The notes under the pieces: generated by a model
The model's input: the letters and a program-made list of their open reading frames with translations, nothing else
Databases searched by the model: none
What the model was told of the DNA's origin: nothing
Source: an uncultured Nitrospiraceae bacterium
Lineage (GTDB): Bacteria > Nitrospirota > Nitrospiria > Nitrospirales > Nitrospiraceae
DNA: 64,000 nt
Assembly (NCBI GenBank): GCA_963706325.1
Contig: CAVPLT010000005.1
Location: forward strand, 290,454-354,453
Direction: 5' to 3'
In this document: positions 39,334 to 58,719 of the stretch, in pieces
How the letters are laid out: each line of letters starts with the position of its first letter
Position numbering within the stretch: the stretch's first letter is position 1
Position numbers and translations under genes: made by a program

Positions 39334-39372
39334 GGGCCGGCTCGTGAAGTTTGATGTGGGCTACTCGATGCC
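39334..39372 (+). pseudogene. Excisionase (Xis) fragment
   Basis: Encodes GRLVKFDV; nucleotide match to the xis genes at 43265 and 56989. Confidence 0.7.
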
Positions 39373-39420
39373 GGACCATGCGATATCGCCACGCCGGTGG
39401 CATGAAAGCAATGGTGACCC

Positions 39421-39549
39421 TTACTGCAGGAGATAGATCGTGAGAAGGCTTACAGCCAGGACGAAACTGATTATGGCAAACAGACGGTATCGGCGGTCGA
39501 TAATGGCGCTCTGATTGAAGACATTGTCGTATAGCGGGCGTTCTTGCAT
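39421..39549 (-). CDS. 42-aa C-terminally anchored membrane micro-protein, copy 1
   Basis: MQERPLYDNVFNQSAIIDRRYRLFAIISFVLAVSLLTIYLLQ; AAAGGAGG RBS; homologous to 43390 and 57142. Confidence 0.85.
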   Translation of the reverse strand: MQERPLYDNVFNQSAIIDRRYRLFAIISFVLAVSLLTIYLLQ

Positions 39550-39571
39550 GAGCGTTGGGCCTCCTTTGACC

Positions 39572-39599
39572 ATTGTACGTGAGTGCCTTAAGGTTGCAA
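39572..39599 (-). promoter_or_regulatory. Sigma-70 promoter of micro-protein copy 1
   Basis: TTGCAA-16-TACAAT, 22 nt before ATG. Confidence 0.7.
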
Positions 39600-39817
39600 C
39601 GAGTAAGCGGTTTCTTCTCACAGCGGGTACGGGTGCCGGGATGCCACAGAGAAGAAGACGTTCAATAGAAGCTTGCCAAACGGAAGAGTCGTTACAGTTT
39701 TCGCATCGCTCAAACGCCCAGTTTCCGATGCAAGGACAGAGCAAAGGCATGAGTCTCTGGAGGCGATGTTATCCCGTCTTCAAACCTTGGCACTGAATTT
39801 CTTGTTACACTTCTTGA

Positions 39818-40447
39818 GTGAAGCAGGAAATTCTCAAAAAGTTTTGCACTTTAATGATGGCCTGGACATTGTGTGGGGCTTGCCTGACCGGCTGCATCAC
39901 CGATGCTCAAACGGTTCTTTCTCCTGAAGACGAGGGCCACAACGTTCTCCTTGTCGCACGGGTGGTGACTGTTATAACGGGTGAAAGGGCCCGGAGGTTC
40001 GAGCCGACCGTTCGAGAAGTGGAGCTTGCCGAACACGATGCAGGGACGCGATACCGTATCAGCGTTGGAGGCAACGATACGTTGGTTGCTGTATTTTTAC
40101 CTCCCGGTCGTTATGACATGACGCGGGTTGAAATTAATGAAGGGCCTTTTCTGTCGATCGCCCAACCGGCCATATCTCTTTCATTGGACGAAGGCCCAGT
40201 GATATTTGGCGGAACATGGCGCTTCGGAGTGGATTCGCCGCGCTACGGGCGGATGGTGTTGATGTCCATGCAGATGGACGAGGAGTCGCGGTCGCTCTTC
40301 GAGCGGAAAATTCGAGTGGATTACCCTACATTAACGTCCTCACCCATCACGCCCGTCCTGCCCCTTCCCACAGAATTCCAGACTCGGCTCTATGAGGTTG
40401 CGCCCTATCCACGTGTTTCACGATACTTCCGGCGCCATTACTGGTAG
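39818..40447 (+). CDS. Lipoprotein of unknown function
   Basis: LTGC lipobox; LPPGRY beta-rich motif. Confidence 0.75.
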   Translation: MKQEILKKFCTLMMAWTLCGACLTGCITDAQTVLSPEDEGHNVLLVARVVTVITGERARRFEPTVREVELAEHDAGTRYRISVGGNDTLVAVFLPPGRYDMTRVEINEGPFLSIAQPAISLSLDEGPVIFGGTWRFGVDSPRYGRMVLMSMQMDEESRSLFERKIRVDYPTLTSSPITPVLPLPTEFQTRLYEVAPYPRVSRYFRRHYW

Positions 40448-40951
40448 AGATCCAGCCATGCCACATGTTTCTTGGAGTAATTTGCGTTCGGGCTCCAACA
40501 AATGCTCTAGACATTGAGGTCTGCGCCAATGCTGTGAAACTTCCTTGCGAATACATGGATTGCGTGATTTCTCTAGGCGGGTCGATCGTAGTTCATGAGT
40601 ACTGGTCTTGCTGCATCATCGCCATGACCCCTAGCGTTCGTCGCGCCTTCTGGTATCGCTCTCGGAACATCAGCTGTGAAGCTCGCCAAGGGGCAACGCA
40701 TGATATGTTTCCTCTGCTGACTGGGAAATTTGCGGGTCAGACGGCGGCTATTGGATAATTGTGTGGAGAGTGATATTCCCAAGAGCGTCTCTGTCACCGC
40801 TGTACCGACGCGATGCCGTACACGGAGACAATCAGAGTGTGAAGTAGCTTAGTCGAGTGATGACATGAAGTCATAATCATTTCAAATCGACAGGGTTTTT
40901 CCAACGGTAGCTTAAAGCCGTCAGCTCTTTTGACAAGCCGCGGAGGTATCA

Positions 40952-41782
40952 GTGGACATTCGAGGGTTGAAGTTGAGAAGGCTGATCGCCATCATAGGTG
41001 GACTGGCGGTCATCGTCGGGATCTGGAAACCAGCGCAGGCTGAGACTCTGACAATTGGTGCGCCACCCAGCTTAAGACCAGCGTTGAGTGACATCTTGCC
41101 GATGTTTGAACGGGAATATGACGCGACGGTCAACGTCGTGTACACGCCATCGAAAACGCTTCTTCAGCAGATTGAAAAGGGAACCCCGATCGATGTGTTT
41201 CTGTCGGCGGGGGTTGAGGAAGTCGAGTATCTAGACAAGAAAGGACTGACTCTCAACGGACACCCTCGGATCTATGCTCAGACCTCTCTTGTCCTCGTGA
41301 TGTCGTCAATCTCCTCATCCCTTTCGGTTTCCTTTCAGGATGCGTTGTTGAACCGAGCCATACGCATCGCTCTCGGTGATCCCCAGACGTCCTCGTTGGG
41401 AGAAGTCACCGCCCGATCGCTGGCAAAGATCTATCCTGGCTACAAAAGCTCTTCCCATATTATCTACGCGCCACATAGTGAGGACATTATGGATCTGATA
41501 GTCAACGGCAAGGCCGATGTGGGTCTGATCTATCGCGTAGATTCGATCTCCAATGGCAAGGTACGCATCAGCGATGAAAACCCAATCGGGACGTATATAC
41601 CTATCCAGTTCGGACAAGCCGTGGTGTGGACCTGTCGAGAGGCCGTGCGTTCTGCCGCAGAACAATTTTCTGATTTCCTCATGACGCCTCGCATACAAAA
41701 ACTTTTGGCTAAATACGGATTTGACTCCATCCCATTGCCTATGGGTCTCATTCCGATTGAAAGGAAAGAGAGGGTATCATGA
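40952..41782 (+). CDS. modA: Molybdate ABC substrate-binding protein, ModA-like (divergent)
   Basis: SL..AL.DI, QIEKG.PIDVFLSA, IALGDP, GKADVGLIY..D and IQKLLAKYGF motifs. Confidence 0.8.
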   Translation: MDIRGLKLRRLIAIIGGLAVIVGIWKPAQAETLTIGAPPSLRPALSDILPMFEREYDATVNVVYTPSKTLLQQIEKGTPIDVFLSAGVEEVEYLDKKGLTLNGHPRIYAQTSLVLVMSSISSSLSVSFQDALLNRAIRIALGDPQTSSLGEVTARSLAKIYPGYKSSSHIIYAPHSEDIMDLIVNGKADVGLIYRVDSISNGKVRISDENPIGTYIPIQFGQAVVWTCREAVRSAAEQFSDFLMTPRIQKLLAKYGFDSIPLPMGLIPIERKERVS

Positions 41783-42372
41783 TCAGGAAATCCTTCATCT
41801 GGGTCGCCTTCCTCGTGACGATCGCGGCGCTGGGGGCCCCGAGCATTTTCGCCATCGACAAGAATCCCGGCACTCTGGAGGGTATTCCACCCAGAACCGT
41901 TGCCGATTATTTACGCGCAGTCATCATGGCCCACCGTCATTTTTATACCATCCAGATCGTAAACCGGCTCGGACAAGAGCGCATTGTCGATGCGTCGGAA
42001 AATTGGCAGGCCACGCATTCATTGCCCTTACCCGTGCAACTCCTGCAGGAAACAAGCGAGATTGCTGAATTGACCGGCCCAAATGTCCGCTTCCATCTGA
42101 TTAGTCAGTGGCCGATCAATAAGGCCAATGCGCCAGCTAATGAATTCGAACGGATGGCTCTTAAAAAAATTGAACAGCATCCAAATCGACCGTATTCCAG
42201 TACGATCGAGGGGGGCGGGCGACAGTTATTCGGAACCGTCTATGCTGACTTGGCGGTTACAACAGCATGCGTTCAATGCCACAATGCACATCCCAATAGC
42301 CCGAAATCGGATTTCAAACTCGGTGACGTCATGGGAGGACTAGTGATCAGTTTTCCATTGAGCCATCCGTGA
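41779..42372 (+). CDS. DUF3365/Tll0287-like exported c-type heme protein
   Basis: LISQWPINKANAP, ACVQCHN and DFKLGDVMGGLVISFP motifs. Confidence 0.85.
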   Translation: MIRKSFIWVAFLVTIAALGAPSIFAIDKNPGTLEGIPPRTVADYLRAVIMAHRHFYTIQIVNRLGQERIVDASENWQATHSLPLPVQLLQETSEIAELTGPNVRFHLISQWPINKANAPANEFERMALKKIEQHPNRPYSSTIEGGGRQLFGTVYADLAVTTACVQCHNAHPNSPKSDFKLGDVMGGLVISFPLSHP

Positions 42373-43144
42373 GATGGCCAGGCTTACGGACTAACCGATG
42401 AACGACGGGTTTCTGATAAAAACCCAGCCTCGGCCAGACGAACGCACTGAACACCGAGAGCCTGCGTCTGCACGATTATCTGATTCTTCGATGAATTCCG
42501 AAATCGGCAGCCCGATGGATTTCATGTAAGCCGATCATGTTTGCGAGGTAGGTCTCGAAGAAAGTACAAGGCCTCCGGGCATCTGTTCTCGCAGCGTCAC
42601 CCGATCCGCCATGTGCCTCATGGAACCACGGACGATCATTCGCACTAACCAGAAAACCCTCACACCTCTCCGGACGACCCGCATGAGACAAGCGTCAGCG
42701 GGAGCTCCACAGCCTTGCAGCCGGCGATTCCATCCATAGAACGGTACTGCATGTATCATTGTGCCCGGGCACTCTCGTGACCTTCGCTGCCACAACGGTA
42801 TGCTGAATGGTAAAATTCCCTCACTTACATGGGACGGAGTAAATGTCACAGGTCGACCCCTGCGTCAGCTCCTGTACGTTCCGCGCATAACCCTCGCGCT
42901 GCTCCCATCGCCTGCTTATGAAGTTCGGTTACATTCCACCCTGCGCGCTTCATGGGGGGGCCTTTGTGCTGTGGGTGGGTGTGCGCCCTATCTGTTCCTA
43001 TCTTCATATCGGCCCGAGTACCTTCTATTGTGGGCGCGTCCGTATGACTTGCCTGCGACGAGACCCCCGATGGCCCCTGGATGATTCGTGCGGCCGTGAT
43101 GGATAACTGGATGCGTGACCGATTAGCTGGGGAGGCTGCAGGCA

Positions 43145-43393
43145 GTGTCGAAAGTGAGGCCTCACACCAGTGAGACGACTGGCCTCATGCGGCTCATCGA
43201 TTGCCTCTCAGCCCATACGATACACGCCATAGTGAGTCAGCGGCGGATTCCCCATGTGAAGGTCGGACGGCTCGTGAAGTTCGATGTGGCCCTGCTCGAT
43301 GCATGGATCAAGCAGAATACGGTGACGCCAATGGTGCAGCGACGGTCCTGTAGACTGGAGGGAAAGGCGGGTGCATCCAGGGCCGCGCCCTAG
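43145..43393 (+). pseudogene. Degenerate excisionase (HTH_17)
   Basis: LSAHTIHAIVSQRRIPHVKVGRLVKFDVALLDAWIKQNTV, close to 56866; N-terminal helix lost. Confidence 0.8.
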
Positions 43394-43518
43394 TGTAATT
43401 CATACATGAATACGACGCCCAGGGAGAAAATAAAGCATATCACCATGAGCAGTTGGTGCAACCGCTCATTTGTTTCAGATGCGTCGAACATATCAGAGAT
43501 TTGACTGCCTTCATTCAT
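43390..43518 (-). CDS. 42-aa membrane micro-protein, copy 2 (not in ORF track)
   Basis: MNEGSQISDMFDASETNERLHQLLMVICFIFSLGVVFMYELH; GAGGAGG RBS. Confidence 0.8.
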   Translation of the reverse strand: MNEGSQISDMFDASETNERLHQLLMVICFIFSLGVVFMYELH

Positions 43519-43539
43519 CTAAGTGTGCCTCCTCTCGGC

Positions 43540-43567
43540 ATTGTATCGAACCATTTTCGCTTGGCAA
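43540..43567 (-). promoter_or_regulatory. Sigma-70 promoter of micro-protein copy 2
   Basis: TTGCCA-16-TACAAT, 21 nt before ATG. Confidence 0.7.
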
Positions 43568-43594
43568 GCAGGATCAATCTTTGGTGCGACCACT

Positions 43595-43665
43595 GCCGTG
43601 GGGAAGTGGAGGTGCGACTCTCGACGGTGCTCAAGCTGTGCAGGGTCCTAAATATTTCGCCATGG
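43595..43665 (+). pseudogene. XRE HTH C-terminal remnant
   Basis: GEVEVRLSTVLKLCRVLNIS vs GKLDPRLSTVLRLCRALGIT in 57379..57591. Confidence 0.65.
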
Positions 43666-43699
43666 CCGGCCATACCATAATGAAGGCCCCTTGCGGACC

Positions 43700-43900
43700 T
43701 CTCCGGCACTCGAGTATAGCCTTGGTGAAACGCCATGCGCATCTGAGCCCATCCCATCTGCACGCTGCAGTAGAAAGATAGCCTCCTTCGGCAGAAGTAT
43801 CGACGCAACGAGAAGCAGTCACCCCAGAGGAATAGGATCAGCCTCCTTTTCAAATGGAACCGTTTCAAATGGAACCGTGACAGAAACCGGAACGGTTGAA
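43700..43900 (+). pseudogene. Tyrosine integrase C-terminal remnant
   Basis: LRHSSIALVKRHAHLSPSHLHAAVE (decayed LGH...RYAH box), followed by AACCG direct repeats and the att site. Confidence 0.65.
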
Positions 43901-43941
43901 CAGCCTAAGGAGAGGAAAGTCATCGAAGCGACTGAAAGTAT

Positions 43942-43987
43942 TGGTGCCCCCCGGCCTGAATTGAACAGGCGACCTTCGGTTTAGGAA
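43942..43987 (-). repeat. att site: diverged 3' half of tRNA-Arg(CCT) including CCA
   Basis: Minus strand TTCCTAAACCGAAGGTCGCCTGTTCAATTCAGGCCGGGGGGCACCA vs tRNA TTCCTAAACCGCGGGTCGCACGTTCAATTCGTGTCGGGGGCACCA. Confidence 0.9.
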
Positions 43988-44117
43988 TCAGTGGAAAGGG
44001 GATGCTCAAGTCGTTGATGACTTGGGCATCTCCCGCCACTACAGCGGCTGGAGCGAGGTTGGCCTTCACTTCTAGTAGCAGCACTTCGTACCAATTCCAT
44101 TCGTTTTGTCTGTATTT

Positions 44118-44215
44118 CTAACACTAGGCTAACACCTGCCCCCCACCTGGCAGACCCCCCCGCCGTCATTGGGTATTGGTACCATCTGGGCAATGCGCGG
44201 TGAAAACAAAATGGG
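44118..44215. repeat. About 100-bp intergenic repeat, copy A (with TAACAC arm-like doublet)
   Basis: 22 bp identical to copy C; 17 bp identical to copy D. Confidence 0.85.
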
Positions 44216-44231
44216 CCGATGCGTCTCCATG

Positions 44232-44492
44232 CTAGGCTCGACGTTGTATGTCTTCGGAAATGCGGACATGCACATGACAGGTGATATCCATACCCGTGGC
44301 ATGTTGGCACCTGTTTTGGAGACAAGCCAAAACCATGCGCTTGACATGATTGACTGCCGCTGTTTGTGTGATGAACTTGCGTGTGTCAGGCACGGCGGTA
44401 ATCGGTGGAGTTCCGTCTGCAAAGGTCGCCTCGTAAACAAGAACATACCAGGCTTGGCACTTGCGTTGGAGTGTGATTGTAACTTCGACCAT
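44232..44492 (-). CDS. Small hypothetical protein
   Basis: 86-aa ORF ending just before repeat A. Confidence 0.5.
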   Translation of the reverse strand: MVEVTITLQRKCQAWYVLVYEATFADGTPPITAVPDTRKFITQTAAVNHVKRMVLACLQNRCQHATGMDITCHVHVRISEDIQRRA

Positions 44493-45205
44493 CGTACTGA
44501 AACGCTATTCAGGGTTGCGCGTAAAAACTGAGCCCCAAACTCTGAAGCGTGCGACCATATGATCGAGGCAGAGAAAAAGGTCAACGCAACGGCTTCATAT
44601 CTGGCTCGCGCTCAGGGTTCGTCACGACTTCCTGGCCGGGAGGTGTCAGGCCGAGTCGCCCCCGAGCCATGTTCCTTCAAAAATGAGACCAGGCCAAGCG
44701 TATCGAGCCGATGCTCGACCGTGTCACTCCTGTGTGCTGTAGCCACGCAGCATCGATCTTCAAGTAAAACTCACGAGTATCAGCCCTTCGTGTAAGCTGT
44801 ATATATTCCGAGTTGGCTGAAGGCTCTATCCGGAAACCACGTAAAAACAGATAGCATTCAACCAGATGTCGCTGAGTGAACATTCGTTGGTGGTTCAAGC
44901 ACACCCCTCAGACATCGAAAGGTCAATAGTCTTGAGAATGTCACTGTACCGGGTCAGGCAGGAATTACCACTAAGGATGTTCCTAGAGTCCAGTTGCATA
45001 GCCTCGGCACCTTTGTGCCATATCCTTGGGAGCACAATTTGGACTGCACTTTTGAAGCGTGGAGAGCGATGAGCCGTGGTATTCATAAGCCGTCGGTTTA
45101 TTCCCCGAACGACCTCGCCGAGCCCGTGAGGGGCCTCGAGAGCGAGAAGACGGCTAGGGGTTGCACTAGTTCTCGTCGGGCAATCCTGGATGTAATGGTT
45201 GTAAT

Positions 45206-45682
45206 ATGGCCTGCGAGCACGACTATCAACTGGAAACCGTCGGTGGCGTATACCTAACGGGGGCGTACGTCTGTCGGTTATGCAGCTACCGGATAGGAAT
45301 GTCCCACGAACAATTCCATCGACAAGCTATGTATCCAGGGCATTACCAAGCCGACGTGAGCGTCGCAGAAACCGTTGAACAGCGAGCACACCATGCGCGC
45401 GAACGGTATGTCCAACGGCTTAGGGACCAAATGAGGGAACTCTCCGGCGAGAATTTGCCATCTGTACTGAGCGAAGATGAGCGCCACGAAATTCTGACAG
45501 AAGTAATCCAGGAGGCCTTGTTGCAAGTCGTGAAGGACTGCCAGGAAGTAGCGAAGGGTTCTGGTCTGTCTGAAGCCAAGAAGGTTGCGGAGTTTATCGA
45601 GAGAAAACTTGGTGGCAGGACGAAAGATAATTCCTCGTCCCGTTACGCAATGCTGCCTAGCTGCCCTAGAAGGGATAGCTAG
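45206..45682 (+). CDS. Hypothetical protein
   Basis: CEH...CRLC N-terminus; helical C-terminus. Confidence 0.55.
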   Translation: MACEHDYQLETVGGVYLTGAYVCRLCSYRIGMSHEQFHRQAMYPGHYQADVSVAETVEQRAHHARERYVQRLRDQMRELSGENLPSVLSEDERHEILTEVIQEALLQVVKDCQEVAKGSGLSEAKKVAEFIERKLGGRTKDNSSSRYAMLPSCPRRDS

Positions 45683-45729
45683 GGGATAAGTGGCTCTCGC
45701 TAGTGGTCACCGGCGACCTTGCCGCTTGT

Positions 45730-46179
45730 ATGAACGCTAAGGCTTGGTTTCAGTTGCTTCTCGTTTCATTCTTGCCCCTCGTGTCCAGCTGCGCTGTTAC
45801 CGTCAAGGAGTTCCGCGAAAACCCCCTTATGGTCTTCAGTAAGGTCTCTGGCAGGCACGAGACTGTGGCGAATTGCATCATGCACCGCCTGGAGGAGACG
45901 GTGGACACCTGGCCGGACATGTTCAGGCTTACGACAGAAGGGGCCCGCACATCACTCCTAATCAGCCGGTTACAATTGGCCGGACCGTTTTTGTTCAAGC
46001 TTTCACCGCTTGCGGAGATGGTCTTTACAGAGACCAGGCCAAAAGATCTTCTTGTCGAGGCTAGATACCGAACATCTGTCGATGGCGAGTACTATCTGGA
46101 ACAGGCGAAACCATTAATTGCCAGTTGTGGCAAGCAGTCCCTGTCTAACAATACCTCAGCTTCCTTTCGCACTCATTGA
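45730..46179 (+). CDS. Lipoprotein
   Basis: Signal peptide ending VSSC; two further Cys. Confidence 0.7.
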   Translation: MNAKAWFQLLLVSFLPLVSSCAVTVKEFRENPLMVFSKVSGRHETVANCIMHRLEETVDTWPDMFRLTTEGARTSLLISRLQLAGPFLFKLSPLAEMVFTETRPKDLLVEARYRTSVDGEYYLEQAKPLIASCGKQSLSNNTSASFRTH

Positions 46180-46294
46180 CCACCGAGCCACCAGCGGGCC
46201 CGATTCACCCCCAACGACGACCGGCATGGGAACCATCACCCCTCAAGAACGTAGGTCAAAACAAAGGTACCCACCTGTCATTAGGTCCCAGATT

Positions 46295-46373
46295 CACCCC
46301 ACCGTCATCGGTTCACCGTGCCGCCCCTGATTGGGTCGGGTCCCATACCTGACATGTGCGCTTCAAACAAAAG
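46295..46373. repeat. Intergenic repeat, copy B
   Basis: cgtc.tcggttcacc.tgcc shared with C; ccatacc.gaca.g.gcg shared with D; ends aaacaaaag. Confidence 0.75.
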
Positions 46374-46853
46374 TGAGCATGGGTGATTTTGGCACGAAAA
46401 CGGCGTTGGCAGTTTGTGCATGACACTCCGAGAGGTCGCCTTGCATCGGACTGCCTAACTTATGGTGAGATCGGTGTGAATGACAGCCTTGGCATGGGCG
46501 TGTGCGCCTGTCTGAGGTTGGCTCAGACGCAGAAGATCTAGAACCACACCGTAAGCCTTGATACGTCCTTCTGATCGCTTCCTCTCGTTCACAGGTTTGT
46601 TCGGCCAACATACGCTGCCCGACCGTGTACGTCTGGCAGGTTGGCTCGGACGCATAAACCGGCCACTGACCGTGTCATACACTTGCCGAGAAAGAGTCTC
46701 AAGGGCCACCGTTCTCGGGTCTGGCTGAACTACACGAAGACGCTGCAAGATTCCAGACTAGGGACAAGAACGTCGACGAGACCACAGGGAGTTAGTCATG
46801 TGCGGCGTCAGAGGTAGTCGAACCGCGAAGGAAGGTCCTGAACGGCGTACAGG

Positions 46854-47258
46854 CTACAGACGGGCCCAAGGTCTCAACGTACCGATAGAATTGAGATGCA
46901 CCAAAATTCGACCGCTTCCTAGCAGGTAGTCAACGTGCGCGTGGAATTGGCCCTGCACCGAACAACTGGCGATGACGTCGGCCAATCCCGGCTGGGCCAC
47001 ATACCTGACACCCCCCAACTCCCGGCACCAATCCGCTTCGATATTGAGATGCTCCTCCAGCTCCCACACAGCAGACTCGCTCTCCGGCACGGAGATATGC
47101 AGATGAAGCATATTAAGTTCAATCGACGAATCGGGATACATGTTCATGAACGTGCCTGCGCTCACGTTCCCGTTCACGCGTACCATGTACCGTCTCCTGG
47201 AAGGATCACAAAAGTCCTCACACTCATCCAGTACTGGAGGGGTGACAACACACATCAC
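46854..47258 (-). CDS. Hypothetical protein
   Basis: 134-aa ORF with protein-like composition. Confidence 0.45.
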   Translation of the reverse strand: MMCVVTPPVLDECEDFCDPSRRRYMVRVNGNVSAGTFMNMYPDSSIELNMLHLHISVPESESAVWELEEHLNIEADWCRELGGVRYVAQPGLADVIASCSVQGQFHAHVDYLLGSGRILVHLNSIGTLRPWARL

Positions 47259-47279
47259 AGGCTGGTGGGATCAATGGAG

Positions 47280-47456
47280 TCAAGGCTCATCCCTGCCAGC
47301 GATGAGAGCCTTGCAGCGATCCATCATGGACGATGCGTAGTAACTCATGACGGCGCATTCCACGATGTTCATCTGCGGGATGTCCTTCAGGGCTGGAGAC
47401 AGCAGGGACTCACACAGTCGCGCGAAGTCTTGGAGTTCTTGACGGACGTTTTCCAT
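47280..47456 (-). CDS. Small hypothetical protein (MENVRQELQDF...)
   Basis: Helical, protein-like 58-aa ORF. Confidence 0.45.
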   Translation of the reverse strand: MENVRQELQDFARLCESLLSPALKDIPQMNIVECAVMSYYASSMMDRCKALIAGRDEP

Positions 47457-48875: not shown

Positions 48876-48889
48876 TGCCGTTATCAATT

Positions 48890-48987
48890 CTAACTAGGCT
48901 AACACCTGCCCCCCGTCGTCGGTTCACCCTGCCACCGCCATTGGGTTGGGACTCCTGTGGGAAATGTGCGGTTAAAACAAAAGGGGG
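48890..48987. repeat. Intergenic repeat, copy C
   Basis: actaggctaacacctgcccccc identical to A; cattgggt and aaaacaaaa conserved. Confidence 0.85.
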
Positions 48988-49320
48988 AGATTTAGCTATT
49001 GAACGCTTATTGGAAATGATGATGTCTGTGTAGGGGTCCGACCTACGGCCAGCTGTTTCATCCTCAACCCGCCCCCAGGTGCCCACGCGCTCAGAGACTT
49101 CATGGCACGAGCGTGGAACGGGCTGAAGTAAGGCTTGACTCTGGATTACAGGGGGAGCCAAGCTGAAATATCCGTGGAGGTCTGTATGAATCCTCGGGTA
49201 ATGCCGCATCCCACCACCACTTTCTTCTATCCTTATGATAGCCGTGCATCTCCCTGCTCCCTCTCGGTTGTTAATGTGAAAGCCAGATGACAATCAATCG
49301 ATGAGAAGGAGTAGTTGGCT

Positions 49321-49641
49321 ATGAAAACACTAACCTCAGTAGCTCTTAGTCTATTGTCTGGAACGCTCGTCGCCACCGTGGCGTTCGGTAATCCGACAAT
49401 GCTGCCACAGCATCCCGGTTACCCCATGAACAAAGCGATAGATCCAGTCGGCGGCCAATCGCTTGCGAATGATCCTGGCCGCCAGAATGCCGTAGGGGAC
49501 TCCGCGCTTCGTCAGTCGGCGGCCATCAGTGACGCGAATCTGTCCCAACAGTTATCGCCCAGCGACCAGGACAAACTCAGTGAAACGCCCGCAACTGATG
49601 TCAAATCGAAAGAGCAGGAGCCCAAGACGGATCGCCGATGA
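49321..49641 (+). CDS. Exported hypothetical protein
   Basis: AAGGAG RBS, signal peptide, NPTMLPQHPGYP. Confidence 0.75.
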   Translation: MKTLTSVALSLLSGTLVATVAFGNPTMLPQHPGYPMNKAIDPVGGQSLANDPGRQNAVGDSALRQSAAISDANLSQQLSPSDQDKLSETPATDVKSKEQEPKTDRR

Positions 49642-49952
49642 AGGGCAATGCACAACCTTAACAGCAAAAATAGATTTCTGGTGACGGGTGGTGGCGAGAG
49701 GGTCTGCAGGGTACGGCAAGGGGACAGCGATAAAAGCCGTGTCCTGCGGCTCTCATCCCAAACTTCATGCACAGAGAGTACACACACACACACTGATCTC
49801 TCCTGACTACTCCCGCGCGAACATGCTGAGTAGCGACAGGAAGAACACCATCGCCATCAACGCTACAAGAACTCGTCACTTGATAGTCTGCCTTCCGGCG
49901 GGTGAGTGATCAAGTTCACTGCCATCTGTGCTGTTTCTCATATCAATACCAT

Positions 49953-50035
49953 ACTAACATCACCCCACCTGGCAGACCCGCCCCCCGTCATTGGTTCTGG
50001 TTCCATACCCGACACGCGCGGGTAAAACAAAAGGC
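49953..50035. repeat. Intergenic repeat, copy D
   Basis: ccccacctggcagaccc identical to A; ccgtcattgg and aaaacaaaa conserved. Confidence 0.85.
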
Positions 50036-50062
50036 GGAGAGGCGTTGCACGGAGACACGATG

Positions 50063-51466
50063 TCAATGGTCGGCTAGGCTTGACATCTCTTTGGGGGACC
50101 TCCGGTTGCACCAAAGCGTAGCCCACCAGAGAGCGAGGGTCGGAATAAGGAAGGCCTCGATGAGGAGTCCTTTGTACGCGTCGGGCCCAGCCCGCACGAA
50201 CGGTGGTAGCGCGGCCACCAGCCCTAAAGGTGCCACAATGGCGAGCAAATTCTGCCAACGGGGATCCCCTTTGTTCGCTTTGACGTGGGCCCTGTAGCAG
50301 CCACCCCAGACAAGACCCAGCAAGACCGCGCCAGCCACGATTCCCCATACGCCGAAGTTTAGGTACCACCCGGTTGCATGGTGGAGGGTATAGGCTTCTC
50401 CGGTGGGGCCCTCGTCGATTCCAAGACTTTGAGCATATTCAGTATAGCTGGCCGACGAACGTTCACCTCGGAACACACTGGGAACTAACGATGCGGCCAG
50501 CGAGATGAAGCTTGATCCATACGTCAGAGGCGCATGAGACTCTAGTAGACCATAGAGCGAGAAATGAGCGGCAAAGGCCTCCCCGCTCGAACGGATCCCC
50601 GGTGCCTCCTCCAATGCTTCCCACCACGTTTCCGTATCTAATAAGGCCAGCATTGGCAAGCTTCTGAGAAAATTGATGGCTCCAATGAATAAGAAGACAA
50701 CGAGGGCCATCGGTATCGTCAGCTTCCACTGTATCCGCGTCGTATTCGTGGAATAAAACAACCCACTTAATATCAATGCCGAGAGCAGCTCATTTTTATT
50801 GCCAAGCATGGCCAAGTACCCAAGCGTGCCAACTAGCAGGAGCACGTACATGACACCGATACCGACGGACTGGCTCCCTTGGATGAAGAGCGCCCGACCA
50901 GGGGTCAGGTACACTGCGAATCCAAGCGCCAAGGAAAACACCGCCATGCGATTGAACACTTGATGAATGGTAAATAAAGGATGGTAGGCACCCAGTCCGC
51001 CTCTTGTTGCCACATACGCCGATATGTTCATTTCAGCGGCACTGGTGAGCTGTTCCGCCAAAATGATGAAACTTCCGATGACACTGACGGTAGCCAGTAT
51101 GAAAAGCGAGACATGGGAAATGTGAATTGGCGCACCGGCCAGCGATTCACCCACCGGGGAGCGTCCGCTGACCTTCCACAAGAGGGTAAGCTCGACGAGC
51201 ATGATAAACGCCGCATAGAGAACCAACGTCATCATGTAGTCATCATTCAACTGGATGGGATACATCCGCTCGGCGAGATAATCATATTGCTTTTCACTCT
51301 CCCCACCCAGTTGAGCGCCGACAATTGACCAGGCCCCATAGAGAGACCAGTAGTAGAGGAGGCCAATTCCTACAAGAAAACTTATCTGCCGGGTGAGTAC
51401 AGACAACAGCGCCGCCAGGGCGGCAATCGCTGCGGTGACAAGCGTTAAGACGACATAAAAATCCAT
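50063..51466 (-). CDS. Polysaccharide polymerase Wzy-like membrane protein
   Basis: About 11 TMs, late periplasmic loop with LTYGSSF...LVPS and GWYLNFGVWG. Confidence 0.75.
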   Translation of the reverse strand: MDFYVVLTLVTAAIAALAALLSVLTRQISFLVGIGLLYYWSLYGAWSIVGAQLGGESEKQYDYLAERMYPIQLNDDYMMTLVLYAAFIMLVELTLLWKVSGRSPVGESLAGAPIHISHVSLFILATVSVIGSFIILAEQLTSAAEMNISAYVATRGGLGAYHPLFTIHQVFNRMAVFSLALGFAVYLTPGRALFIQGSQSVGIGVMYVLLLVGTLGYLAMLGNKNELLSALILSGLFYSTNTTRIQWKLTIPMALVVFLFIGAINFLRSLPMLALLDTETWWEALEEAPGIRSSGEAFAAHFSLYGLLESHAPLTYGSSFISLAASLVPSVFRGERSSASYTEYAQSLGIDEGPTGEAYTLHHATGWYLNFGVWGIVAGAVLLGLVWGGCYRAHVKANKGDPRWQNLLAIVAPLGLVAALPPFVRAGPDAYKGLLIEAFLIPTLALWWATLWCNRRSPKEMSSLADH

Positions 51467-51514
51467 GCAGGTTCCGGTATGCGGCAGGTCAGGAAATCGA
51501 AGGCGGATTATACG

Positions 51515-52609
51515 TCAGGGCCGATCCAGCGTCGAATGTTCACTGAACATAGCGGTAATAACTTTAGGCATCGCCAGGAATAGGAGACCTTTGAGTGAGC
51601 CCACCCCATGCCCTATGTGCCGAATAGCGTAGACGAGCGGGAGGGTCGCCATGTATGTCGCGCACTTCAAACGAATGGACATCCGAAGGGACATTGCCAG
51701 GGTCACGACCACATACGTCGCGCCGATTGTAGCCGGGACCCAGGTCCACGGCGATTCAGTTATCCACCCTGCCAACAGTGCGAGGAGAGCGAGCACGAAC
51801 GCAAGGGGAACGTAGTGTCGCCATGACGCCGCCTGTTTGCGAAATTTCCAGGCGTAGACGGCCCAGAATCCATCTGCAAGGTTATGCTTCCAGAACGTCC
51901 ACAAATCGGCATCTGCGTAATAGGTGACGTTGATCTGCGGCACCAGGAGAATCCGTCCTCCATTCGCGAGATTCTTTTGTTGTGTTCCATGTCTGAGTTG
52001 CGGATCTAATCGTTCGTCAAAGAGTCCTATCTCGTCAAATAGCTCTCGTTTCCAACATCCAAAGGCCACAGCATCGGTGTAGCGGAGGTCGGCTGCCCCC
52101 ACTTTTACCGCCGCATTGCCCGAACCAAAGGGGTCGGACAACACGAAGGCGATAGACTTTGCTATCAAAGTCTCGTTTCGGGGGGCAATGGTGAGCACAC
52201 CGCCAACCATTTGTTCTCTGCAGGTCATCAGATAGTGAACACATTGACGAATGTAATCTGTCGGGTAGGAAGAATGGGCGTCCGCCTTCATCACAACGTA
52301 GCCAGTCGATCGACCAATGCCGAGGTTCATGGCAGCGGGAATGGTCCGCTGTTCATTTTGTATCAGGAAAATGTTGGAGTGCTGAGCGACATACTCCTGA
52401 ACCACCTCTGTGGTACCGTCCACACTCATGCCATCGACCACGAGAATCTCCAGCCGATCCACGGGATAGTCGTTTGAGAGCAATGAATCAAGGCACGGGG
52501 CAATGCACGTTTGCTCATCCCGGCACGGGATAATCACCGAAACAGGTGGAGGATTCTCTTCCAGCGATTGGAAAGGACCCTTGGTGTATTGGACAGACGC
52601 GAATTTCAT
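51515..52609 (-). CDS. GT2 glycosyltransferase (ExoA-like, C-terminal TMs)
   Basis: VSVIIPCRDE, VVDGMSVDGT, KADAH and IGLFDERL motifs; a short locally shifted stretch near 51960-52005 is likely. Confidence 0.9.
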   Translation of the reverse strand: MKFASVQYTKGPFQSLEENPPPVSVIIPCRDEQTCIAPCLDSLLSNDYPVDRLEILVVDGMSVDGTTEVVQEYVAQHSNIFLIQNEQRTIPAAMNLGIGRSTGYVVMKADAHSSYPTDYIRQCVHYLMTCREQMVGGVLTIAPRNETLIAKSIAFVLSDPFGSGNAAVKVGAADLRYTDAVAFGCWKRELFDEIGLFDERLDPQLRHGTQQKNLANGGRILLVPQINVTYYADADLWTFWKHNLADGFWAVYAWKFRKQAASWRHYVPLAFVLALLALLAGWITESPWTWVPATIGATYVVVTLAMSLRMSIRLKCATYMATLPLVYAIRHIGHGVGSLKGLLFLAMPKVITAMFSEHSTLDRP

Positions 52610-53000
52610 TCTGGAGCAATCAGATAACGCCTGGAGGTAGTTTAGAGGTTATGGGTCAAGTAGCGTAGTCGTCTCAACAGCGGGCTGACCCGCAGCACGT
52701 TATGACAAGTCTCTATAGCTACACCATGGGGCTACGAATGTCTACGGGGGTCAATTGGGAGGAGTTAGACAGACTGAAAAGGTGGATGTAATGGACGAGG
52801 CACTACAGGCTAGATAACCATTACTTGCCCTGCGAAGCTTTCCCCATGTACGTCTGTATGTCCTTAATAACCTCTGCATAATAGAGGCAACTACATAATA
52901 ACGAGACGAGCGTGGTGCATACGGTACAGCGGCCAGTTGTTGCCTATAGTGACACAGGATAAGGCCACTCTATAAGCTGTTACCGTTATTAGTTTGTGAC

Positions 53001-53091
53001 CTAATAGGCGTTCTATGAAAGTCTATGAGGGTGTGAGTGGGGATGAATTGGTAGCCCATTCAAGGTCGGTCTAAAAGTAACGGAAGCGGTG
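53001..53091. repeat. About 90-bp direct repeat, family 2, copy 1
   Basis: ctaataggcgttctatgaaagtctatgagggtgtgagtggggatg...gaagcggtg aligns with 54229-54311. Confidence 0.8.
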
Positions 53092-53207
53092 CGCCTGGAA
53101 CGCAGACCTGTACTCAAGTAAGTGCCCTCACACCAATCTTTCTTCTTCCCCTGCCCCCTGTAAGGCACAGCCAACCCCGCATATGGAACTCGCTGCGGCC
53201 TGAGGTC

Positions 53208-54032
53208 TCAACGGGTGCTGCGAATCGGGACCTCTTTTTTGATTTCTCTACCATCTCTCAGTAAGTCCACTATCACAGTGTGTCCGGCGCTGCGCTCAAC
53301 AGAGTCCATAAAACTATGTACATCAGATATAGAGTACTCGCCGATTTGCCGGATTATATCTCCCCTAAATATGTCAGCGTGAAACGCAGGAGTACCATTT
53401 CCCACCACCACAACCTGAACGCCTTTGTTACTGCCTATCTGCTTCCGTTGCTCCTGTGAGAGGTCCTCGACTTTAGCTCCGAACCTCATGGGCTTTGCTT
53501 TCACCCAATAAGTGGCTCCATAGTCGTAGCGATCCACGTTATAAGGCATCATCGTGGTTCGGCTTCCATATGTTGTCGTGTTCGCAGTCCCAGAGTAGTT
53601 TCCTATGCCCCCTTGACCGAAGGTGGTACCTGATATCTGGGTCGTCGATGTTTGGGTATTTGGGACCGTTAGTGGGACCGCCCCTGAGTGGGTATGAGTG
53701 TAAGCACTATATAGAATAACTACAGCAGCGTGGATATCCTCGCCATGTGTGACTGCGTCCTTCTCATTTACGCGTCCTGCGTTAAAGGTCGAATAGCCTA
53801 TCTTGACGTAACCTTCCTGGAACATTCGTAAATCGTCAGCGGCTGGGGAGGTTCCCCTGATGACGGTAGGAGGATCTCCTGACAAAACTAATTCATTTTT
53901 GTGAGCTAGGACCTCTTCTGCTTTACTGCCTGTATAGAACTTGGCAAAGTTGTTTGTGCAGCCAGCCAGTGTCATTGTAAGAATCATTGCCGCTGCCTGC
54001 AGGACCGTTGTTCGCACAAGAACCTCCTTCAC
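53208..54032 (-). CDS. Lipoprotein with C-terminal PDZ domain
   Basis: LAGC lipobox; FGAKVEDL, GTPAFHADIFRGDII and LLRDGRE motifs. Confidence 0.85.
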   Translation of the reverse strand: MKEVLVRTTVLQAAAMILTMTLAGCTNNFAKFYTGSKAEEVLAHKNELVLSGDPPTVIRGTSPAADDLRMFQEGYVKIGYSTFNAGRVNEKDAVTHGEDIHAAVVILYSAYTHTHSGAVPLTVPNTQTSTTQISGTTFGQGGIGNYSGTANTTTYGSRTTMMPYNVDRYDYGATYWVKAKPMRFGAKVEDLSQEQRKQIGSNKGVQVVVVGNGTPAFHADIFRGDIIRQIGEYSISDVHSFMDSVERSAGHTVIVDLLRDGREIKKEVPIRSTR

Positions 54033-54228
54033 TGATAATGCAACGAGATTACAATGACTAGACGATAAGCTAACGGCCTAGGACAGTCTGCGTAGTAGGC
54101 TGGACTATATAGAGAGCGCCTTAAGTTGTACATAGTGCCATTAGGGCCGATAGATATCTTATTGTTGCCTTCTAGATAGCTGCCTATGGTGCCATTGAAC
54201 ATAGCCGCCAACTAACCCTTTATTGGTT

Positions 54229-54311
54229 CTAATAAGCGGCTTATGAAAGCTTATGAAGGCGTGAGTGGGGATGGGTTGTGGACCGCCAAGCTGAGTGCAA
54301 AAGAAGCGGTG
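54229..54311. repeat. Direct repeat, family 2, copy 2
   Basis: ctaataagcggcttatgaaagcttatgaaggcgtgagtggggatg...gaagcggtg. Confidence 0.8.
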
Positions 54312-54322
54312 ATTTGCACCGG

Positions 54323-54811
54323 TTATGAGTCACAAAGTTGTCGGTAGTGGCTATAAGCGTCCACGAGCGAAGACAGTCTGAGGAAGGGCTGAAACATCGA
54401 AGGTTTCCAACCAGTCGCCTCTTGGATAAAGCCGCCCTTTGTCATTCGGTCCCGACTCCATGCCTGATCTAGTACAGGCAACGTCAGCCAGTTTACGTGA
54501 TCGCCCGTCACTGCGTCCGTGGGCCATGTGAAATGATCCAGGAATGTTTTTTGTCCCTGTGTAAGCCCCTCATTGGCGAAAGGCATATAGCTGGGTAATC
54601 CACGCGGTCTCGGTTCCACATACCAGCGTATAGGGATAAGACCGTTTCTGTAGTCGCCAGTGCCAACCCGTGTAACCCACTCATCGAACAGTTCTAGCGC
54701 CGACGCATCGTCGATTGTGTAATCATCGGAAATCCAGCTCGCATCTATTTCGTAAATTGCCCACAGTTCCGTCTCAAATTTTCGCTCCCCCCGTTTTTTT
54801 GGTACCGCCAC
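54323..54811 (-). CDS. Trp-rich hypothetical protein
   Basis: 162 aa; FTWPTDAVTG..VNWLTLPV.D and GGFIQEATGWKPS. Confidence 0.7.
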   Translation of the reverse strand: MAVPKKRGERKFETELWAIYEIDASWISDDYTIDDASALELFDEWVTRVGTGDYRNGLIPIRWYVEPRPRGLPSYMPFANEGLTQGQKTFLDHFTWPTDAVTGDHVNWLTLPVLDQAWSRDRMTKGGFIQEATGWKPSMFQPFLRLSSLVDAYSHYRQLCDS

Positions 54812-54877
54812 AAGTTCACGTTAGGTACTCCCTTCTACAAGCGGTTTCTAAGCTGTTGGATCTAAATACAACTATTT

Positions 54878-54970
54878 AGTTGTCTATCGGCAGACAACTG
54901 AGCTTGACATACATAGGCATTCACTATATCTAGTGGGTATGTGATGTGATTACCACAATATGTTGTGGTT
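54878..54970 (+). promoter_or_regulatory. AT-rich divergent control region with TTGACA and palindromes
   Basis: agttgtct-N6-agacaact, TTGACA at 54904, cacta-tatc-tagtg, accacaa-tatg-ttgtggt. Confidence 0.55.
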
Positions 54971-55011
54971 ATTGGTGCCATTCATTCAGTTAGAAATACA
55001 AGGAGGATTCC

Positions 55012-56316
55012 ATGCATATGAGCGGCAATTCAGCTGTTGGCGAACGATCGAGAGCTTTGCTTAACAATTCATCATACCCGCAAATACAGCATGGTCAACC
55101 CCCAAGTTGCTGGCCCACACTGAAACCAGAGGCACTTGATGGCTTGGCCGGAGAGATCGTCCGGGAACTGGATCAGTACACCGAAGCGGACCCGGTGGCG
55201 GTCCTCGCTCACCTCTTGGCCCAGCTCTCCTGCTATATCGGTAAGTCTCCAGCGCCTGAAGTGTTGCTGGGAGGAGTGGGCAGTCCGCTTGCATTTTGGC
55301 CTGTCGTAATCGGCGATACGAGTAAGGCGCGTAAGGGTACTGCGGCTAAGGAAGCAGAGGGAGCCTTCGAGAGGTCATTTCCGGGATGGTCCAAAGACCA
55401 ATTGCGAGGCAATCTCTCCAGCGGTGAAGGCCTTGCCTATGCGGTGCGGGACGCTGGCTGCGAGCCAGGAGACGAAGGGATCCAGGACAAGCGGCTCTAC
55501 CTCGTGCAGCCCGAATTTGGCAGCATGCTCAAGCTGATGGGGCGTGAAGGCAATAGCTTATCAGGAATTATCCGTGACGCCTGGGACGGGGTAGATTTAG
55601 CTCCTCTTACGAAGAATTCACGAGTTCGAGCCACCAAGCCTCACATTGTCATCGTAGGTCACGTCACGAAAGAGGAATTACGCAAGGAGCTTAAAGCCGT
55701 TGAGCAATGCAACGGTTTTGGCAATCGTTTTGTCTGGCTGGCGGTTCATCGATCAAAGGTCCTAACTTTTCCTCCACCTCGGGATGAACGACGCCTCGAT
55801 GAGCTAGCTACCCGCCTCAAGGAGGTCGGCGGGTTTGCCCAAAACGTCAGGTCCGTCGGCTGGTCGTCGGATGGGAAAGACGCCTGGGCTAGCGTGTATC
55901 CGGTACTGTCGGAAGGAAAGCCTGGATATGTGGGAGCCCTTCTCGGAAGAGCGGAGGCGCACGTCGGGCGATTGGCTGCGCTGTATGCCTTGCTCGACCA
56001 AAAGTCTGAGATCGAAGCCTGTCACGTCCAATCTGCATTGGCGATATGGGAACACTCGGAAGTGTCCGCTGAGTGGATCTTTGGTCATGCAGATCAGATT
56101 GCAGAGCAAGAGAACAAGCTGCTCCGTGAGCTGGTGCGTTCTCGTCAGCTCACCGATTCAGATGTCAGCAAATTATTCGGGCACAACCTCGCGAGCGACA
56201 AGCTTGGACGGCTTAAAGATTCGTTGGTCAGCCAAGGTCTCGCGCACCACGAAACGGCGTCCACCGGAGGAAGGCCGATGCAGATCTGGAAGTCGGGGCC
56301 ACGCGTGACCGGGTAG
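55012..56316 (+). CDS. DUF3987/YfjI-family replication-associated P-loop protein
   Basis: GLAGEIV...TEADP, VIGDTSKARKGT, LSSGEGL, EFGSML, RDAWDG and NGFGNRF motifs; AGGAGG RBS. Confidence 0.85.
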   Translation: MHMSGNSAVGERSRALLNNSSYPQIQHGQPPSCWPTLKPEALDGLAGEIVRELDQYTEADPVAVLAHLLAQLSCYIGKSPAPEVLLGGVGSPLAFWPVVIGDTSKARKGTAAKEAEGAFERSFPGWSKDQLRGNLSSGEGLAYAVRDAGCEPGDEGIQDKRLYLVQPEFGSMLKLMGREGNSLSGIIRDAWDGVDLAPLTKNSRVRATKPHIVIVGHVTKEELRKELKAVEQCNGFGNRFVWLAVHRSKVLTFPPPRDERRLDELATRLKEVGGFAQNVRSVGWSSDGKDAWASVYPVLSEGKPGYVGALLGRAEAHVGRLAALYALLDQKSEIEACHVQSALAIWEHSEVSAEWIFGHADQIAEQENKLLRELVRSRQLTDSDVSKLFGHNLASDKLGRLKDSLVSQGLAHHETASTGGRPMQIWKSGPRVTG

Positions 56317-56336
56317 GCATCAGGGAGGGGATATTT

Positions 56337-56468
56337 CTTTTTTCGTAGACCTTAGGTGCAGAGTGCTGAGAGTTCACTACTCAATAGAAAAATCAGTAAG
56401 TAAGACAATGGCGAGACATATGAAGACTTGCGGATTCACACATACGGGCTACGAAAGAACGAAAAAAG
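56337..56468. repeat. Inverted iteron-like repeats (candidate origin)
   Basis: cttttttcgtag (56337-56348) faces ctacgaaagaacgaaaaaag (56449-56468) across an A-rich spacer. Confidence 0.55.
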
Positions 56469-56865
56469 TGTCTCAGGTCCTCGTCCCAGTGAAGCGCAAC
56501 GATGTGTAAGCCGAAGGGTGAGCCTGCTCCTCTTTCGCAGGCGAACCCTGAGGCCTCCTCTCTTCGTCGGCCAGGCCGACCATGAGGCAGCTAGGCACAT
56601 GTTTTAGCATAAAGACCCGCAATGGCTAGGTAGGCATGGGCCTGCGGGATTGATCAGAAAAACATTACGAAACGATAACAAAATCTGAAAGGAAGGGTAC
56701 CCACATGCAGCATCACTCTCGCAAAGATGGCAATACGCGCCAAGTGCCTAGATTGTTCCTGCGGACAGCCAAAGGAAGTGCGGCTCTGTCCCATGACCAC
56801 GTGCGCTCTGTGGCCTTACCGAATGGGTAAGCGCTCAAAAGAGATGAGCGGGAGCGAGGCTAGCC

Positions 56866-57075
56866 ATGAATGAGCAGGCTGCGTTGAAGAAGCTTATAGG
56901 CGTAGTGGAGGCCGCACAGTACACAGGCCTATCCGTGCATACCGTTTATGCGATGGTCAGCCAGCGGCGTATCCCGCATGTAAAAGTGGGCCGACTGGTC
57001 AAGTTCGATGTGGCCATGCTGGATGCGTGGATACGGAAGAACACCGTGATGCCTATGCCACCAAGACGCGCATAG
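56866..57075 (+). CDS. xis: Excisionase / HTH_17 DNA-binding protein
   Basis: LIGVVEAAQYTGLSVHTVYAMVSQRRIPHVKVGRLVKFD. Confidence 0.88.
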   Translation: MNEQAALKKLIGVVEAAQYTGLSVHTVYAMVSQRRIPHVKVGRLVKFDVAMLDAWIRKNTVMPMPPRRA

Positions 57076-57141
57076 ATCGCGAGATACGAGGCGGACGGGG
57101 TGCCAGTCGTGGCCCCGCCGCCGCCCAGCTTTGTTAGCGGG

Positions 57142-57270
57142 CTATTGCAGAAGATTAAGGGTCAATATACCCAAGGCGAGAACGAGACTCGCCACTGCGA
57201 GCCAGCGGTACCAGCGGTTATTGTAGTCGGTCTTGTCGAAGGTGTCCGTGTAGCGATTGCGTCCGTTCAT
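57142..57270 (-). CDS. 42-aa membrane micro-protein, copy 3 (not in ORF track)
   Basis: MNGRNRYTDTFDKTDYNNRWYRWLAVASLVLALGILTLNLLQ; AAGGGAG RBS; TAGAAT 21 nt upstream. Confidence 0.85.
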   Translation of the reverse strand: MNGRNRYTDTFDKTDYNNRWYRWLAVASLVLALGILTLNLLQ

Positions 57271-57343
57271 CTGATTACTCCCTTGAGAGCCATTCTACGG
57301 CACAGTGTGGCATGAAAAAAACCCCACGAAGGTCGGATTAAGA

Positions 57344-57591: not shown

Positions 57592-57595
57592 TCCG

Positions 57596-58714: not shown

Positions 58715-58719
58715 TAAAT

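Follow-up and report, generated by a model that had tools for sequence, protein, structure and literature searches.

The 64,000-nucleotide stretch of DNA analysed here (the window), from an uncultured Nitrospiraceae bacterium, carries three minus-strand open reading frames (ORFs) at 39421-39549, 43390-43518 and 57142-57270, each of 42 codons plus a stop (129 bp). Judged from their sequences, these ORFs are real genes for a 42-residue micro-protein, predicted to be tail-anchored in the inner membrane. Each lies in a small tRNA-integrating element or in what is left of one, where the gene and its promoter make up an accessory antisense cassette of about 270 nt between the excisionase-type gene xis and the XRE and integrase (int) genes. 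The peptide genes are under purifying selection, also in dead, immobile remnants that are common to two species. The micro-protein family is new and has a narrow range; it belongs to a known general class, that of accessory small membrane proteins on integrated elements.

Results

The three ORFs had been reported in an earlier reading of the window from its letters alone (the original prediction), and their lengths, strand and coordinates were reproduced, as were the ungapped alignment and the invariant residues M1, F11, R19 and L41. Pairwise identities are 10, 17 and 12 of 42. Peptide gene 1 is of sub-type B and is hosted by decayed element 1; peptide gene 2, of sub-type C with an acidic N-terminal domain, is hosted by decayed element 2; and peptide gene 3, of sub-type A with a basic N-terminal domain, is hosted by element 3, the sole intact element of the window. 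All three are convergent with an excisionase gene of the HTH_17 type or with its remnant, as had been claimed: an HTH_17 xis in element 3, a damaged ORF in element 2 and a 25-nt remnant in element 1.

AlphaFold2, run with 47 sequences, gave a mean predicted local distance difference test score of 75.7, with residues 1-12 unstructured and a single helix from 13 to 41. In the modelled layout, a disordered or polar N-terminal part of about 22 residues is followed by one C-terminal transmembrane (TM) helix and 2-3 residues past it. The N-terminal part probably faces the cytoplasm, because basic residues precede the helix. Among 46 gap-free members, R4, F11 and R19 are conserved in 87% each, Y21 in 80%, Y39 in 85% and L41 in 91%, and the mean pairwise identity is 37% for the N-terminal half versus 49% for the TM half. 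Net charge over residues 1-22 has a bimodal distribution (-5 to -1 in 13 members, +1 to +7 in 33). A complex prediction with four copies of the peptide scored 0.17 (mark, 0.42), which argues neither for nor against an assembly.

Searches of Pfam, PHROGs, NCBIfam and PADLOC gave no consistent match for the peptide family, in agreement with the earlier remark that no known family was recognised. The best PHROGs match was phrog_9071 (unknown function), found with 3 of 15 members (E = 0.037), and a holin phrog was matched by 1 of 15 (E = 0.16); NCBIfam gave two single-member matches with E > 0.04, and PADLOC gave none. MmpB (PF26627), a lead from the Atlas, was set aside, as its score of 0.87 is below the lead threshold of 0.9 and PF26627 was unmatched by the 47 members at E ≤ 10. 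Our searches of an open-access library gave no paper on the family or on micro-proteins of Nitrospira islands; the family may have been published elsewhere.

Of the six frames, only the annotated one is free of stops in all 14 copies with DNA; each of the other five is interrupted in 8-14 of the 14. Nei-Gojobori ratios of nonsynonymous to synonymous substitution rates (dN/dS) for five phylogenetically independent pairs were 0.27, 0.27, 0.28, 0.62 and 0.21, and deeper pairs gave 0.09-0.17. The pooled counts (NG86) were 27.5 synonymous differences (Sd) at 140.5 sites and 30.5 nonsynonymous differences (Nd) at 489.5 sites (Fisher p = 4e-6).

Another genome, G023, shares elements 1 and 2; there, the counterpart of 36001-43773 is syntenic, with 86-87% identity. 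Beyond 43773 on the right, the only match of the G023 locus to the window is a 131-nt cross-match of its own xis region to the xis of element 3. Between our genome (G000) and G023, the coding sequence (CDS) of peptide 1 has 14 substitutions in 129 nt and that of peptide 2 has 11 in 129, both without an indel, versus 169 substitutions in 926 nt and 15 indel events in the non-coding and pseudogene flanks. The pooled CDSs (25/258) differ from the flanks (169/926) with a Fisher p = 8e-4, and at the flank rate the chance of zero indels in both CDSs is about 0.017. Neighbouring real genes differ by 7.9%, with no indels, and the peptide-2 promoter has 3 substitutions in 60 nt and no indels (5%, versus 12-17% in the flanks). 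The peptide genes are thus under purifying selection in the dead elements, as the CDSs change at roughly half the rate of the flanks and carry no indels. Selection on the peptide genes of decayed elements had been proposed in the original prediction, and the dN/dS values of 0.2-0.6 agree with it.

The search that the original prediction had called for, with a hidden Markov model (HMM) built from the three peptides, gave 7 matches at E ≤ 1e-12 in the genome (4.24 Mb on 8 contigs); the match after these had E = 3.7. Thus four copies had not been seen before. Contig C4 starts with a near-duplicate of element 3 (98% identity over 1781 nt) that holds one of them. Another is in a decayed element at tRNA-Arg(TCT), where xis is intact but XRE and int carry frameshifts, and two are in tandem beside a frameshifted xis. 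Such a tandem pair occurs in three genomes, at L036 (G053:C72), L034 (G022:C200) and L053 (G000 C4:1010k), with a sub-type A' gene by xis and then a sub-type B gene; at L036, the second cassette stands in place of the first 52 or so codons of XRE.

Public proteins found with a 15-member profile form 43 clusters, none of which bears a Pfam domain. Exactly 42 residues are encoded in 33 of them; of the remainder, 4 are the same ORF read from an upstream start, 3 have 46 residues and 3 are frameshifted or truncated. Two of the 43 bear the NCBI name 'MAG: hypothetical protein [Nitrospira sp.]'. The description of the peptides as unannotated fails for the family as a whole, since several public relatives are called 'hypothetical protein'; the claims that the family is diversified and has a promoter of its own are supported. 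Exhaustive HMMER over 1.84 billion representatives gave only 20 matches at E ≤ 1e-3. In whole-genome searches, 6 of 39 genomes of the genus contained the family, whereas a sample of 400 other genomes from the phylum yielded none; both genome sets are samples, and such negatives mean 'not found in those searched'. By HMM, the element-borne family appears limited to one genus, and the records of its relatives are named Nitrospira. A search of metagenomes with a closer alignment found 2 loci, both in a xis/XRE/int context.

As originally claimed, each of the window genes has a -10 box 21-22 nt upstream of the ATG and a strong Shine-Dalgarno (SD) sequence; the SD is of the GGAG type and the promoters are of the sigma-70 type. 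For peptide 1 (39550-39609, minus), the SD is at 39566-39560 and the promoter, TTGCAA-16-TACAAT, is at 39599-39572; for peptide 2 (43519-43578, minus), TTGCCA-16-TACAAT is at 43567-43540. For peptide 3 (57271-57343, minus), the SD is at 57284-57278 and the -10 box, TAGAAT, is at 57297-57292, with a T-run upstream, back to back with the XRE promoter. Among 16 copies, a GGAG SD is present in all 16, TAnnAT at 21-22 nt upstream of the ATG in 14, and TTGC[AC]A at a spacing of 16 nt in 9-10. The leader that bears the SD is only about 14 nt long and follows a promoter close to consensus, and the fold of the peptide mRNA is not unusual (z-score, -0.17).

The locus is contained in 17 DNA runs from soil and rhizosphere (X1-X17). 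A 229-nt contig from a soil metatranscriptome library (X18) matches 57112-57241 without a difference and then continues into unlike sequence. The break at 57112 falls in a G+C-rich hairpin directly 3' of peptide gene 3 (57090-57126, minus), which has no U-tract and so is not a consensus terminator; this suggests that the cassette also exists with another left flank in soil. Contigs of X18 and X19 also span part of int. Libraries X19 and X20 gave no coverage of the peptide gene, which is no proof of silence.

The cassette of element 3, comprising hairpin, ORF, SD and promoter, fills an insert of about 268 nt (57076-57343, minus) that runs from the xis stop to the -35 of the XRE promoter and is not in sister elements. 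A search of the genus with Xis found two close sisters (L035 and L049) that read xis, 36-40 nt, XRE and int, with no peptide gene, and eleven more distant elements in which int directly follows xis. Among 27 loci in other genera of the phylum sample, 17 are xis-XRE, 8 are xis-int and 2 are neither; an antisense TM ORF was found in 0 of the 27, and the sole long gap among them (L057) is filled by a second HTH_17 gene. The original prediction had called the peptide a 'core' module, and the absence of the ORF from these 27 loci and from the two close sisters contradicts this. The XRE promoter of element 3 (57344-57373, plus; TTGACA-18-TACCAT) lies 5 nt upstream of the ATG at 57379, and the layout is the same in the peptide-less L035 (TTGACA, 17-18 nt, TAC[AC][GA][AT] for the two). 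Since this layout is the same with and without the peptide, the cassette is an insert between the xis stop and the XRE promoter. The XRE transcript of element 3 would be leaderless or nearly so.

The predicted linkage to xis/XRE/int modules held in 14 of 16 loci with DNA context, two metagenome contigs among them, in which xis, XRE or int genes or remnants are present. Four of the 16 look complete (element 3, the C4 duplicate, L033 and L085). The xis-peptide-XRE block is combined with integrases of at least three lineages, with 100%, about 45% and 26-30% identity to the integrase of element 3 (int3).

When other genomes of the genus were searched with the peptide HMM, weak matches pointed to a tail-anchored chromosomal membrane protein of about 50 residues. 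In our genome, one gene of this kind is at C7:543834-543983 (L082:4332-4484, minus), flanked by GalT-like and ThiS/TtuA genes. A second chromosomal paralogue, at C1:140454-140771 (L083, about 4120-4275, plus), has genes for a PAS-HisKA_3 kinase and a LuxR regulator before it and one for an SGNH/AlgX-like protein after it. When the whole genome was searched with an HMM of the chromosomal family, the element peptides were the next-best matches, with E of 1e-3 to 5e-3, and the relationship is reciprocal. Alignment of the two families by hhalign gave 96.2% probability and E = 2e-9 over 36 columns (7-42 versus 10-45), including the polar juxtamembrane segment. The element peptides are thus remote homologues of a chromosomal protein of the same genus, a relationship that is new here. 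Within the genus, 23 of 36 other genomes carry the chromosomal family, against 0 of 24 searched from other genera of the order; the family has neither a name nor a Pfam domain. The two forms have the juxtamembrane polar motif and the TM helix in common, and both are limited to the genus in the searches made. However, the chromosomal form is longer, with a basic C-terminal tail that is missing from the element form, and it is usually single-copy in a housekeeping context and present in 24 of 37 genomes, versus 6 of 39 for the element form.

Discussion

What, then, might the micro-protein do? We tentatively favour a moron-like role, in which it would be a trans-acting, tail-anchored membrane modulator that benefits its carrier. 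A moron-type modulator is favoured because the gene has its own near-consensus promoter, is dispensable to the element, is selected after the element has died and has a host relative. The cassette would be transcribed alone, independently of the element's operons; the variable N-terminal and juxtamembrane segment would act in trans on a membrane-associated host target, perhaps the partner of the chromosomal relative; and the outcome would be an advantage to the carrier cell. As an RNA-level side effect, convergent transcription into the 3' end of xis may possibly damp excision.

Phage morons, a concept from HK97 and HK022, are extra genes with their own promoter that are inserted between genes adjacent in related phages. 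The cassette resembles them in that sisters with adjoining xis and XRE genes lack it, in that its promoter and SD are conserved and its own, and in that it runs opposite to its neighbours and outlives the element. It differs in that its carrier, a small tRNA-integrating island, is not recognised as a phage, and in that the gene appears to derive from a host small-protein family.

Several observations weigh against the moron-type reading and the evidence beneath it. Two classical marks of a moron are missing or doubtful: a terminator scan found 0 terminator-like sites in the insert, although the G+C-rich hairpin follows the stop codon, and the GC content of the insert (0.56) is no different from that of xis (0.55) and XRE (0.55). 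The related-locus search found no match in viral contigs, and the elements cannot be recognised as phages. Around one copy (G052:C2), 6 kb of sequence to each side is free of element remnants, and the broken public clusters P0039, P0040 and P0043 show that decay of copies does occur. The 16 loci were found via the peptide, which biases the count of '19 of 19 intact'. Rate tests on single loci draw on few sites, and region 2 alone gives p = 0.096. The composition of TM segments inflates the HMM and hhalign scores of short peptides, which bears on the link to the chromosomal family. Finally, the X18 contig is the only transcript support and may come from DNA carry-over, so it is a weak hint.

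Within the moron-type reading, the leading version is exclusion of, or immunity to, incoming related elements or phages, which we put forward as a doubtful proposal; the original prediction had named exclusion as an example. It leads because of the position in the immunity region by the repressor gene, the basic and acidic sub-types, the tandem pairs and the retention after element death. A fuller form of the idea, close to the archive of specificities in the original prediction, seems quite unlikely: the sub-types (basic A, A' and B; acidic C and D) would be exclusion specificities, which would mimic the host micro-protein and block a membrane step of the matching incoming class, and the dead elements at tRNA-Arg would be kept as a growing set, after capture, diversification and re-domestication.

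Two small proteins of integrated elements invite comparison. PfsE of Pseudomonas Pf4, whose N-terminus is reported to be cytoplasmic, binds the host inner-membrane protein PilC and blocks superinfection (PMC8764522). Like the peptides described here, it is a very small inner-membrane protein of an integrated element, with conserved aromatics near the membrane. However, none of the libraries searched gave sequence similarity to PfsE, and the YAWGW motif of PfsE (PMC8764522) is not in our peptide alignments. Furthermore, the present elements are not filamentous phages, no link to a pilus was found, and the gene is at the xis/XRE junction. DicB of the cryptic prophage Qin is reported (bioRxiv 10.1101/708461) to protect against phages via inner-membrane proteins and to be retained by the host. 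In both cases a small protein comes from the immunity region of a decayed element (a prophage for DicB). DicB is not a membrane-anchored peptide of this family and has no homology to it.

Among other explanations, one closer to the host deserves the most attention, although it is unlikely: the peptide could be a copy of a host small membrane protein, kept in spare or variant form, that does the same job as its relative of about 50 residues. It would then belong to, or regulate, an enzyme of the envelope or membrane and play no part in exclusion or defence. The homology to the chromosomal family, the housekeeping and envelope contexts of the chromosomal paralogues and the persistence of purifying selection in immobile remnants would fit this. 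However, four of the seven genomes with an element peptide also keep the chromosomal gene, which argues against a simple replacement, and the 42-residue form is without the basic C-terminal tail of the host form. The acidic and basic N-terminal domains and the tandem pairs also fit specificity better than conserved housekeeping. A role in the element's own switch is a good deal less probable. Here, a peptide anchored in the membrane would serve as an anti-repressor or would modulate XRE, Xis or Int, or else the antisense promoter would matter mainly for its RNA, which would insulate XRE-int from the xis operon and damp xis through convergent transcription. The gene is divergent from XRE, with promoters back to back and -35 regions about 25 nt apart, as in control regions of the cI/cro type, and it is convergent with xis. 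Complete sister elements nevertheless lack the peptide gene, and selection has outlasted the decay or loss of XRE, xis and int, as seen in element 1, in element 2, at the orthologous G023 loci and at the tandem loci. An RNA-only role leaves the dN/dS of about 0.3 and the single open frame unexplained.

Equally improbable in our estimate is the addiction toxin that the original prediction had raised, as part of a type I toxin-antitoxin system in which a small hydrophobic toxin would be restrained by an antisense RNA from the convergent xis side and would stabilise the element or its remnant. The peptide is indeed small and hydrophobic, with 42 residues and one TM helix, is borne by a mobile element and persists in remnants. 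It is convergent with xis, with a 3' overlap of 4 nt in element 2 (43390-43393) and of 10 nt in the tandem loci, and in this it resembles the 3'-overlapping prophage systems described in PMC5848175. The prophage toxins yonT/SR6 and bsrG/SR4 share with it the small hydrophobic product, the integrated element and the convergent, 3'-overlapping neighbour (PMC5848175 and PMC6563280). In contrast to those systems, we find no conserved antisense gene, no structured mRNA (z = -0.17) and a strong SD on a short leader, and the peptide has a conserved polar N-terminal domain, with its TM helix C-terminal. The would-be antitoxin region changes faster than the peptide CDS (17-22% versus 8.5-11%) and has indels, although an unconserved transcript may exist. 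Furthermore, the exposed SD, the leader of about 14 nt and the near-consensus promoter would lead one to expect constitutive high expression in remnants that lack XRE. Codon-level purifying selection (dN/dS of about 0.3 in remnants) would not be expected from addiction alone, no toxin family was matched, and the polar domain keeps R4, F11 and R19 (87% each) and Y21 (80%). Finally, that the ORFs arose by chance, or mark a conserved non-coding segment, is scarcely credible. They are short, and antisense ORFs of 64-71 codons overlap some copies, but length is kept at 24-40% identity, the dN/dS of 0.29 is found in the annotated frame only, and the best antisense frame has stops in 8 of 14 copies. 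The jump in the HMM search from 7 matches to E = 3.7 and the 43 public clusters also speak against it.

Catalogues of small membrane proteins are poor, and a role is known for very few of those that mobile elements carry. Here, the coding status, selection, promoter, acquisition as an insert of about 270 nt and likely origin in a host micro-protein family can be read from the DNA, and the peptide is kept by the host after the element dies. The relatives of the carriers are recorded as Nitrospira, in which mobile elements are almost uncharted. If the peptides are exclusion or defence factors, they would be a new type of micro-protein for that field and would show how islands recruit host micro-proteins. 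The narrow range limits the importance of the family for now.

Elements and neighbouring genes of the array

Element 3 reads, in order, DUF3987, a 48-residue ORF, xis, the peptide gene (minus), XRE, a tyrosine integrase and tRNA-Arg(CCT). The DUF3987 protein is encoded at 55012-56316 (plus), and the 48-residue ORF upstream of xis (56727-56873, plus) is kept in sister elements. The xis gene (56866-57075, plus) encodes an excisionase-type protein (HTH_17, Pfam E = 4e-13) and is convergent with peptide gene 3. The XRE gene, of the Cro/cI-type helix-turn-helix class, is called at 57355-57591 (plus), with the ATG at 57379 as its likely true start. It is followed by int3 (57596-58714, plus) and by the integration target, tRNA-Arg(CCT), at 58720-58796 (minus). 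A 32-mer of the tRNA 3' end, searched as an att repeat with up to 3 mismatches, matched only the tRNA itself, and the left border of element 3 is thus undefined. An inverted-repeat (operator) search of 57076-57400 with a seed of 6 found none; a weak palindrome across the XRE -10 box was spotted by eye.

In element 2, the damaged xis (43145-43393, plus; HTH_17 E = 1.4e-5, below the cutoff) has an internal deletion, and its end overlaps the peptide-2 stop by 4 nt; its G023 orthologue has 3 TGA stops. An XRE remnant of 20 residues is at 43600-43659 (plus), and a fragment like the 3' end of a tRNA (43948-43987, minus; 83% to 58725-58764) marks the end of the element. Of element 1, only a 25-nt conserved core of xis is left (39335-39359), within a remnant at 39301-39420 (plus) that is 21.7% diverged from G023, with an indel.

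Between elements 2 and 3, integrase C-terminal remnants are present at 44118-44140 and 48888-48910. The repeats at 44118-44172, 48888-48914 and 49963-49994 consist of such remnants and a repeated 32-mer. These suggest that the array holds more decayed elements or borders in this interval. Across tRNA-Arg and inverted, a second integrase, 34-55% identical to int3 and in pieces, lies at 58861-60200 (minus) with a xis-like gene, without XRE or peptide; this integrase is whole in the C4 near-duplicate (62%; L003 1813-2919). The window at 57018-61453, in the end region of its contig, matches G000 C4:1-4454 with 90.5% identity, or 98% over the first 1781 nt, and the peptide gene is identical. Either the genome has the element twice, or two strains are mixed in the assembly.

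Cargo lies beside element 3, in the stretch 50063-54032: a 467-residue polytopic membrane protein with no Pfam match (50063-51466), a family-2 glycosyltransferase (51515-52609) and a PDZ lipoprotein (53208-54032). These genes may be a surface-polysaccharide modification set. A 158-residue protein encoded at 45206-45682, for which Pfam gave no match, has a Cys-rich segment in common with a 249-residue ORF (L002:5230-5979) on contig C4, about 1.3 kb away from the tandem peptide locus. Finally, the 3' ends of two minus-strand genes are each followed closely by one copy of a 50-nt direct repeat (80% identity), at 53001-53050 and 54229-54278.

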